From: a virus
Lineage: Duplodnaviria; Heunggongvirae; Uroviricota; Caudoviricetes
IMG/VR virus record: IMGVR_UViG_2537561832_000002
Length of the DNA stretch: 4,323 nucleotides
Reading direction: 5' to 3' (one strand)
The position numbers and the translations under genes were made by a program. Position 1 is the first letter of the stretch. Every line of letters begins with the position of its first letter. The notes beneath the pieces were generated by a model. The model searched no databases and was not told where the DNA came from. It saw nothing but the letters and a program-made list of their open reading frames with translations. Positions 1 through 306 of this stretch are shown here, piece after piece.

Positions 1-135
1 TCCCGCATCCCCTTTAGGTCCCTGAGGACCTGCCGGCCCTGCAGCTCCCGTATCCCCTTTCGGTCCCTGTGGCCCTGCCGGGCCTGCAGCTCCCGCATCC
101 CCTTTAGGTCCCTGAGGACCTGCATTTCCCGTCAG
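1..135. repeat. Tandem 45-bp direct repeats (about 2.7 copies in window, probably continuing upstream) encoding a 15-aa collagen-like unit AGPQGPKGD[A/T]GAAGP
   Basis: Positions 1-33 are identical to 91-123. Unit 46-90 matches unit 1-45 at 40 of 45 positions. The repeats are in-frame coding sequence of Stf. Confidence 0.85.
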
Positions 136-306
136 ACCGGTCTCTCCCCTGTCGCCTTTCGGCCCCTGCGGGCCTGCCGGACCAGCATCACCTGCCGGCC
201 CCCGTTCACCGGTTGCCCCTGCCGGGCCGGTGTCGCCACGCTCTCCTTTATCTCCCTTCGGCCCCTGAGGACCCGCGGGCCCCGGTTCCCCCTTTGGCCC
301 GGGAGG
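1..306 (-). other. Collagen-like Gly-X-Y repeat domain of Stf (continues beyond window start)
   Basis: About 100 consecutive Gly-X-Y triplets in the Stf frame, rich in Pro, Lys, Asp, Ala and Gln (e.g. [23 protein letters not shown]). Confidence 0.85.

Follow-up and report, generated by a model that had tools for sequence, protein, structure and literature searches.

The question raised by the 4,323-nucleotide (nt) stretch of IMG/VR virus record IMGVR_UViG_2537561832_000002 (the window) is what lies behind the repetitive Gly-X-Y coding at its first positions: which gene the tract belongs to, whether that gene is whole, and whether its near-identical repeats vary in copy number from strain to strain. 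The window matches the chromosome of Escherichia coli O104:H4 strain C227-11, a member of the 2011 outbreak lineage, at 100% identity, and the remainder of the gene could be read from there. Window positions 1-306 very probably encode the triple-helical collagen stalk of a side tail fibre whose gene, stf, is intact and is carried by a lambda-like prophage of E. coli O104:H4; the domain architecture is the one designated EPclC*.

The full stf open reading frame (ORF) is 512 amino acids (aa) long and lies at 5521-7059 of the source-genome locus (L001), with 477 nt of coding beyond window position 1. A preliminary description of the window, made from its letters, had foreseen that a stop codon or frameshift just outside it, or a Gly-X-Y tract reduced to an isolated patch, would weaken its proposals. 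Neither was found: the frame runs for 159 further codons with no stop and no frameshift upstream of position 1, the array extends to 7.4 units, and the extension recovers 7 units plus a partial one together with the C-terminal tip. In C227-11 the genes run in the order gpL, C40 peptidase, tail assembly protein, gpJ, lom, stf, DUF4376, which places stf in the tail module of a lambdoid prophage.

The predicted protein was compared with profile and structure collections. Its N terminus is that of a Stf homologue, as had been proposed: the prophage tail fibre N-terminal profile PF08400 (PfN) covers aa 1-133 at E 3.2e-68, with 133 of 134 profile positions aligned, and the collar domain of Ur-lambda gpStf (PDB 9E7M chain Ta / 9MGH) matches residues 1-94 at E 1.1e-48. 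The proposal that this lambda-like domain switches into an unbroken collagen-like domain stands in part; the Gly-X-Y run is unbroken, but a segment of ~116 aa, PCoil, intervenes. PCoil is rich in Ala, Ser and Glu (42, 24 and 23, respectively, of the 148 residues at aa 101-248), and its 117 aa (aa 134-250) compare with the 116 aa listed for the corresponding segment of the 55989 allele. By analogy it is presumed to form a trimeric coiled coil.

The collagen domain follows. Within the window, Gly-X-Y triplets continue without a break over aa 251-352 (nt 4-309), the codon at nt 1-3 opening the next triplet, and in the full ORF there are 59 uninterrupted triplets at aa 251-427 (PF01391, E 1e-27). 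The protein then ends in 85 non-collagen residues, DSGLFGVGSF...GLFQRIS, which from their sequence are taken to be the PfC2 domain of Ghosh et al. 2012 (PLoS One 7:e37872, PMC3368898). These 85 residues have no match to PF06820 (PfC), nor to any other Pfam or PHROG family; the Pfam matches of the whole fibre are PF08400, PF01391 and a sub-threshold PF13620.

In its distal 40%, the collagen domain consists of a tandem array with the 15-aa consensus GPQGPKGD(A/T)GAAGPA. Tandem Repeats Finder reports its first part, in the window, with a period of 45, 88% matches and a score of 211. The close identity of the 45-base-pair (bp) units that had drawn attention to the locus was reproduced: positions 1-33 are identical to 91-123, with a mismatch at the very next base (C versus A), and the unit at 46-90 has the same base as the unit at 1-45 at 40 of 45 positions. 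This exceeds what collagen coding alone would impose, because 45-nt stretches taken from elsewhere in the Gly-X-Y region show 62-76% identity to the unit, compared with 89-100% inside the array. Most of the differences between unit types sit in codons that are still synonymous (4 of 5, 3 of 5 and 2 of 3), which argues for recent duplication of the DNA.

Seen whole, the array (L001 5792-6123) consists of 7.4 copies of 45 bp or, equally, of 2.5 copies of 135 bp with 96% matches. The unit order in C227-11 is A-B-A-C-B-A-C—seven full units—followed by a partial, C-like unit that leads into the cap. Units 2-4 are identical to units 5-7, and an exact run of 157 nt at period 135, starting from nt 965 of the gene (about window position 95), constitutes a perfect 135-bp tandem duplication. 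This higher-order repeat of three 45-bp units is discernible only beyond the window edge, and the preliminary description missed it, as it did the coiled-coil segment and the position of the array at a junction of mosaic modules.

Repeat number was compared among alleles whose flanks are 96.5-100% identical, and there are 4, 6 or 7 full units. The longest form, with 59 triplets, 7 full units and 512 aa, is present in C227-11, 2011C-3493, FDAARGOS_349, FDAARGOS_403 and an rpoS mutant; JE86-ST02 and O111:H21 15A have 54 triplets, 6 full units and 497 aa; and 55989, HUSEC2011 and FWSEC0009 have 44 triplets, 4 full units and 467 aa. The three forms thus differ by 15, 30 or 45 aa, always a multiple of 15 and always in frame, which is the stepwise change of length by 15 residues that had been predicted from the window. 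Since the 45-bp unit is a multiple of three, such changes alter length only, and expression is not turned on and off by frame or promoter spacing as at a contingency locus. An apparent 90-bp length difference in FDAARGOS_349 and others (a span of 1290 against a query of 1200) was rejected as an offset of repeat register in the BLAST alignment, the ORF there also being 512 aa.

The alleles of 55989, JE86-ST02 and O111:H21 differ in unit sequence too, with GVA and GPT variants, so those of 55989 and JE86 are true alleles and not collapsed copies. Beyond this allele set, fibres with the PfC2 terminus but a different N-terminal part lacking PCoil (ST866, O158:H23, ECO2947, PM4-5 and three IMG/VR prophage contigs) have roughly 7-11 units as counted by eye, and database proteins with the same 15-aa repeat have 3-8. 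Stepwise length variation holds across lineages. Collagen rises by ~0.286 nm per residue, so that each unit would correspond to about 4.3 nm of helix and each 135-bp block (45 aa) to about 13 nm; at that rise, stalks of 44, 54 and 59 triplets would be ~38, 46 and 51 nm long.

Variation within the outbreak clone is a separate matter. Five of the seven complete genomes of the outbreak lineage have 7 units and two have 4, a pattern that assembly collapse would also give. HUSEC2011 and FWSEC0009, the two short records, come from the lineage of C227-11; both encode WP_050033886.1, and both lack exactly one perfect B-A-C block of 135 bp. Either a deletion or duplication took place in frame and very recently, or the perfect duplication was collapsed in assembly. 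That the apparent variation in copy number is altogether an assembly artefact, with perfect repeats longer than the reads collapsed or mis-expanded, is a serious contender, although on balance we lean away from it. The two short records differ from the five long ones in just this way, and many partial database proteins begin inside the array (P0121, P0122 and P0123, with 16, 95 and 11 member sequences), so that short-read draft assemblies must routinely break there. Simple collapse is insufficient, however, for the 55989, JE86-ST02 and O111:H21 alleles, in which the sequence of the units changes with their number, or for the PfC2 fibres of unrelated strains, each of which has its own order of variants among its roughly 7-11 units. 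An artefact would account for the intra-clone difference at most.

Should the 135-bp change in the outbreak clone be real, the array could be a fast in-frame switch of side-fibre length, operating in steps of ~4 and ~13 nm on epidemic timescales, with GPQGPKGD microhomology as the joint for tip swaps; we consider this unlikely. If true, the switch could match fibre length to different depths of O-antigen or capsule and would be a tail-fibre counterpart of the length polymorphism of BclA, with a measurable effect on adsorption or host range. Whether array length changes within a clone is the one point here with some potential.

The array may also act as a recombination joint. Two classes of BLAST match were seen: records with the same C-terminal module align over query positions 1-674, a span that starts in DUF4376, crosses PfC2 and reaches the array's proximal end, and O157-type records align over 584-1001, from inside the array to the coiled coil, so that the two blocks overlap in the array. 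Among the 120 listed homologues, 74 are colinear with the fibre to at least aa 250, and 55 of the 74 diverge no more than 1 aa from where a GPxGPKG(D/E) motif ends, as only 17% of collagen positions would by chance; these breakpoint statistics are inflated by shared ancestry. Several distinct types of junction are located at this motif, and they lead to three C-terminal modules: the PfC2 array (P0001), PfC (PF06820; P0014 and P0080), and S74 (PF13884; P0007 and P0066), an intramolecular-chaperone domain. Judged from these alignments, the recurring GPQGPKGD motif appears to be the site of both internal deletions and tip swaps.

One could go further and suppose that the array is mainly a recombination joint, its repeated motif DNA letting prophages swap the tip module (PfC, PfC2 or S74), with change of copy number a neutral side effect. 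Clustering of the breakpoints at a motif that attaches three C-terminal modules to the same N-terminal part is consistent with this, as is the occurrence of PfC2 and its array on two N-terminal parts, of which only one has PCoil. Ghosh et al. 2012 (PMC3368898) likewise put the modularity of these proteins down to recombination between prophages, and a passage in PMC5601072 describes Gly-X-Y repeats that separate the domains of Streptococcus thermophilus phage antireceptors. As a full account we find it possible but doubtful: one or two motifs would suffice for crossover, and an array kept at 3-11 near-identical units stays unexplained. A role as a joint is in any case compatible with a role as a stalk, and does not exclude it. 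The repeats of S. thermophilus phage antireceptors have reportedly been proposed as recombination sites.

The C-terminal PfC2 module was examined in other proteins. It is conserved in the independent proteins P0001, P0050, P0102 and P0119 and recurs in the diverged representatives P0136, P0141, P0155, P0160, P0171, P0217 and P0227, always directly after collagen and at the extreme C terminus, ending in GLFQRIS or a close variant (GLFQRIL, GLFQRAY). Given this recurrence of its sequence, PfC2 is clearly a real domain in spite of having no Pfam or PHROG match. An AlphaFold2 model of the last collagen triplets and PfC2 predicts a small all-beta domain of six strands, with ~72 for the predicted local distance difference test score (pLDDT) in the globular part, and a Foldseek search of the model against the PDB gave nothing at E <= 0.001, so that no fold was assigned.

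Searches for further relatives of PfC2 returned little. A close-relative scan found PfC2 in no species-representative genome; the PfC2 alignment was too divergent to seed a scan; PfC2 alone as a word-indexed protein query returned only five fragments; and an exhaustive HMMER search with P0121 drew so many matches to generic collagen that they obscured the rest, only ~8 of the representatives truly carrying PfC2. P0226, a predicted protein of 194 aa whose N-terminal part is unrelated, shows 94% identity to the PfC2 C terminus over its last 32 residues; this looks like a frameshifted or chimeric gene call.

The DUF4376 gene follows the PfC2-type fibre gene in every locus examined, although in ST866 it is annotated as two short ORFs. 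Its start overlaps the end of stf by 55 nt in the O104:H4 and 55989 annotations, and elsewhere there is a gap of 7-10 nt. Lambda Stf needs a Tfa chaperone; the DUF4376 protein gave no significant match to a tail fibre assembly (Tfa-type) family. It could serve in assembly or be the distal tip proper.

RefSeq labels stf in C227-11 as 'prophage tail fiber N-terminal domain-containing protein, pseudogene, missing C-terminus', in a feature that ends exactly at window position 1 (L001 6001), and only the 7-unit, 512-aa form is flagged in this way (C227-11, 2011C-3493 and FDAARGOS_349). With this label, the frameshifts in small neighbouring genes such as ykgJ, and the absence of the exact 512-aa sequence from the protein collection (where the 467- and 497-aa alleles, looked up in the same way, were missing too), the gene could be viewed as a decayed remnant in a defective prophage, its repeats drifting as junk. 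We regard this as very unlikely. The ORF is open across all 512 codons; its C-terminal 85 aa are within one residue of those of four alleles that RefSeq annotates as intact (WP_050033886.1, WP_000216474.1, WP_200984390.1 and WP_001440650.1); the sole difference from the 467-aa 'intact' allele of the same clone is an in-frame 135-bp duplication; and J, lom and DUF4376 are intact at the C227-11 locus. Moreover, the flagged feature halts mid-array, as would be expected where alignment to a shorter reference fails. The pseudogene call is likely an annotation artefact, the extra 45-aa block defeating alignment to the shorter reference proteins.

That the protein instead belongs to the bacterial surface, as a collagen-like adhesin or virulence factor directed at the human host after the manner of streptococcal Scl, might be thought from its occurrence in pathogenic E. 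coli, from the binding of host matrix by collagen-like proteins of other pathogens (discussed in Ghosh et al. 2012, PMC3368898) and from the name 'SclE' borne by homologue P0012, but it is scarcely credible for a protein whose N-terminal domain matches the structurally defined tail collar of lambda Stf, whose gene has the canonical J-lom-stf position in a tail module, whose N terminus is PfN itself (aa 1-133) with no room for a leader peptide, and whose C terminus, read directly as GLFQRIS, lacks an LPXTG-type cell-wall anchor. P0012 itself, deposited as 'collagen-like surface-anchored protein SclE [Streptococcus pneumoniae]', has an S74 C terminus and is 88% identical to the E. coli fibre; the record is probably contaminated or mislabelled.

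We therefore return to the stalk of a prophage side tail fibre, for which the following course of events would fit. PfN would dock a trimer on the tail tip, in the manner of lambda Stf, and the fibre would be part of the virion; the 116-aa Ala/Ser/Glu-rich coiled coil and the 59-triplet collagen helix would together make a hinged rod; and the all-beta, 85-aa PfC2 would cap the helix, its probable tasks being to nucleate the trimer and either to bind the cell or to carry the DUF4376 'tail fibre protein'. The array, whose units are in frame and near-identical even at silent sites, would be young, and unequal recombination or replication slippage might add or remove 15-aa units or 135-bp blocks with the frame kept, possibly with an effect on adsorption. 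The recurrent motif along the collagen would be the place of deletions and of swaps of C-terminal modules.

Several points weigh against this. Expression of the fibre and its presence in virions are predictions from gene sequence. The model of the PfC2 cap is only moderately confident (mean pLDDT 60) and is without a fold match, and its role as a cap is a guess by analogy with PfC. By tblastn, none of 50,697 deposited phage genomes gave a match to PfC2, and it is present at full length in only three IMG/VR contigs, so no characterised phage is known to use a PfC2 tip. RefSeq gives the 467- and 497-aa forms as intact genes but the 512-aa form as a pseudogene. The 55 motif-end breakpoints are not independent events, 40 of them being at one shared position, and the difference within the outbreak is precisely the one to be expected if an assembly had collapsed a perfect 135-bp duplication.

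The features of the window, and of the gene that follows stf, are collected in Table 1.

Table 1. Features of the window and of the adjoining DUF4376 gene (window positions unless given on locus L001).
Feature	Position	Strand	Basis
stf, side tail fibre gene, 5' two-thirds (codons 1-353)	1..1059	-	open translation; runs off the window at position 1
First 2.7 units (A, B, part A) of the 45-bp / 15-aa array	1..123	-	Tandem Repeats Finder
Collagen domain, non-repetitive proximal part (aa 251-313)	121..309	-	Gly-X-Y run from aa 251
PCoil, Ala/Ser/Glu-rich low-complexity segment (aa ~134-250), presumed trimeric coiled coil	310..660	-	composition
PfN, prophage tail fibre N-terminal domain, attachment/collar (aa 1-133)	661..1059	-	PF08400
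Terminator-like hairpin and T-run, between lom and the stf start codon	1078..1107	-	consensus match only
lom (Ail/Lom outer-membrane beta-barrel), context gene upstream of stf	1211..1810	-	PF06316 E 9e-125; RefSeq annotation
gpJ 3' part (central tail fibre / tail tip attachment protein), context gene cut by the window end	1878..4323	-	ORF listing
DUF4376 protein (PF14301; PHROG 1141 'tail fiber protein'), next gene after stf	L001 4904-5599	-	profile matches

All three genes in the window are thus on the minus strand, and RefSeq places the whole of gpJ at L001 7878-11273. The hairpin before stf has 13 pairs, 7 of them G-C, followed by TTTTTATTGGT, and a second terminator-like hairpin with a T-run lies after gpJ at 1840-1859 on the same strand, so that lom is flanked on both sides. 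These are consensus matches only, two being found against 1.0 expected in shuffled sequence; the arrangement fits lom as a self-contained inserted gene (a 'moron'). ORFs of 207 aa (L001 5502-6125, minus) and 215 aa (L001 5722-6369, plus) cross the array in another frame and on the other strand, and were rejected as genes, being stop-free artefacts of a GC-rich repeat.

At the prophage end, a cysteine-cluster gene of the ykgJ family (L001 4501-4761 and its equivalents) is frameshifted or split in all of the O104:H4, 55989, JE86 and O111:H21 records, and is intact in strain ST866 (L008 481-810). The end of the J-lom-stf-DUF4376 module adjoins DinI/yecD/aspS in the O104:H4 outbreak genomes (L001 3196-4900), and tRNA-Ser/hyaA in 55989 and O111:H21 15A (L003 1-1400 and L006 1-1400). 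These differing neighbours suggest that prophage ends were exchanged or that the chromosome was rearranged between prophages.

This is an ordinary collagen-like prophage side fibre, of a known type and family and showing a known phenomenon. What is new is the unit-level map of the array, the finding that genomes of the outbreak lineage contain a perfect 135-bp duplication, and a probable error of annotation. Since the family, the collagen helix and the variable length of the collagen were described in 2012, the locus has little importance beyond bookkeeping: an intact 512-aa fibre gene bears a pseudogene label from RefSeq in several O104:H4 reference genomes, and the array is a spot at which assemblies of a much-studied outbreak clone disagree and drafts break. 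The GPQGPKGD motif marks points of fibre-module exchange and is useful for engineering or classifying lambdoid side fibres. If fibre length affects adsorption, the natural alleles with 4, 6 and 7 units are a ready-made test series.

The closest known system is EC55989_1078, listed in Table 3 of Ghosh et al. 2012 (PMC3368898) as EPclC*, with 467 aa and a PCoil of 116 aa. It is the 55989 allele of the same gene, so the architecture was already published in 2012, and the preliminary description had rightly called the collagen-like fibre notable but not novel. The two have in common PfN, the 116-aa PCoil, one collagen domain and a C-terminal domain that is unrelated to PfC and differs by one residue; their DNA flanks are 97% identical, and lom, J and DUF4376 are common neighbours. 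They differ in that EC55989_1078 has 44 triplets and 4 full units, compared with 59 and 7 here with the perfect 135-bp duplication, in the unit variants, and in the prophage end, which is at tRNA-Ser/hyaA there and at DinI/yecD here.

Fibres of the EPclA type (e.g. ECs2717 of O157:H7 Sakai) likewise have PfN, PCoil and a collagen domain rich in GP(Q/P)-GPK-G(D/E), and the N-terminal 60% of the present protein is ~88-94% identical in PfC-type homologues. EPclA, however, ends in PfC (PF06820) and not PfC2, and its collagen is shorter (63-144 aa; Tables 2 and 3 of Ghosh et al. 2012), without the long array of near-identical 15-aa units. The same study reported that the lengths of the collagen domains vary in multiples of three, that the GP(Q/P)-GPK-G(D/E) pattern recurs, and that EPclA is a trimeric dumbbell whose stalk contains a coiled coil and a true collagen helix, the C-terminal cap trimerising and renucleating the helix; a trimer with a genuine collagen helix has been demonstrated for recombinant EPclA only (PMC3368898).

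With the Stf of lambda and Ur-lambda, the protein shares a homologous collar, a gene position after J and lom, and a presumed role as an accessory adsorption fibre. In the Ur-lambda virion, the N-terminal domain of gpStf is present in twelve copies, which make up a collar where gpV meets gpM; four trimeric side fibres are anchored by it and accelerate adsorption (PMC12617516). A collagen domain is absent from lambda Stf, whereas here there is a shaft of coiled coil and collagen, a PfC2 tip and DUF4376 as the next gene, and the gp37-like distal shaft and tip with a downstream Tfa-type chaperone gene that typify lambda Stf and T4 gp37 fibres are absent.

Two more distant comparisons concern the repeats themselves. 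BclA of Bacillus anthracis also has a collagen-like stalk under a C-terminal trimerising globular domain, its structure (1wck) is a weak match to the fibre in the collagen region (E 1e-6), and a passage in PMC10470788 (citing Sylvestre et al. 2003 J Bacteriol 185:1555) states that its number of triplet repeats is strain-specific and sets the length of the filament; BclA is, however, a spore surface protein with unrelated terminal domains, and the link from repeat number to filament length was measured there and would apply here by inference. In the antireceptors of S. thermophilus phages, the domain-separating Gly-X-Y repeats flank an internal variable region, VR2, the purported determinant of host range according to the portion of PMC5601072 that cites Duplessis and Moineau 2001; those proteins and their hosts are unrelated to the ones described here.

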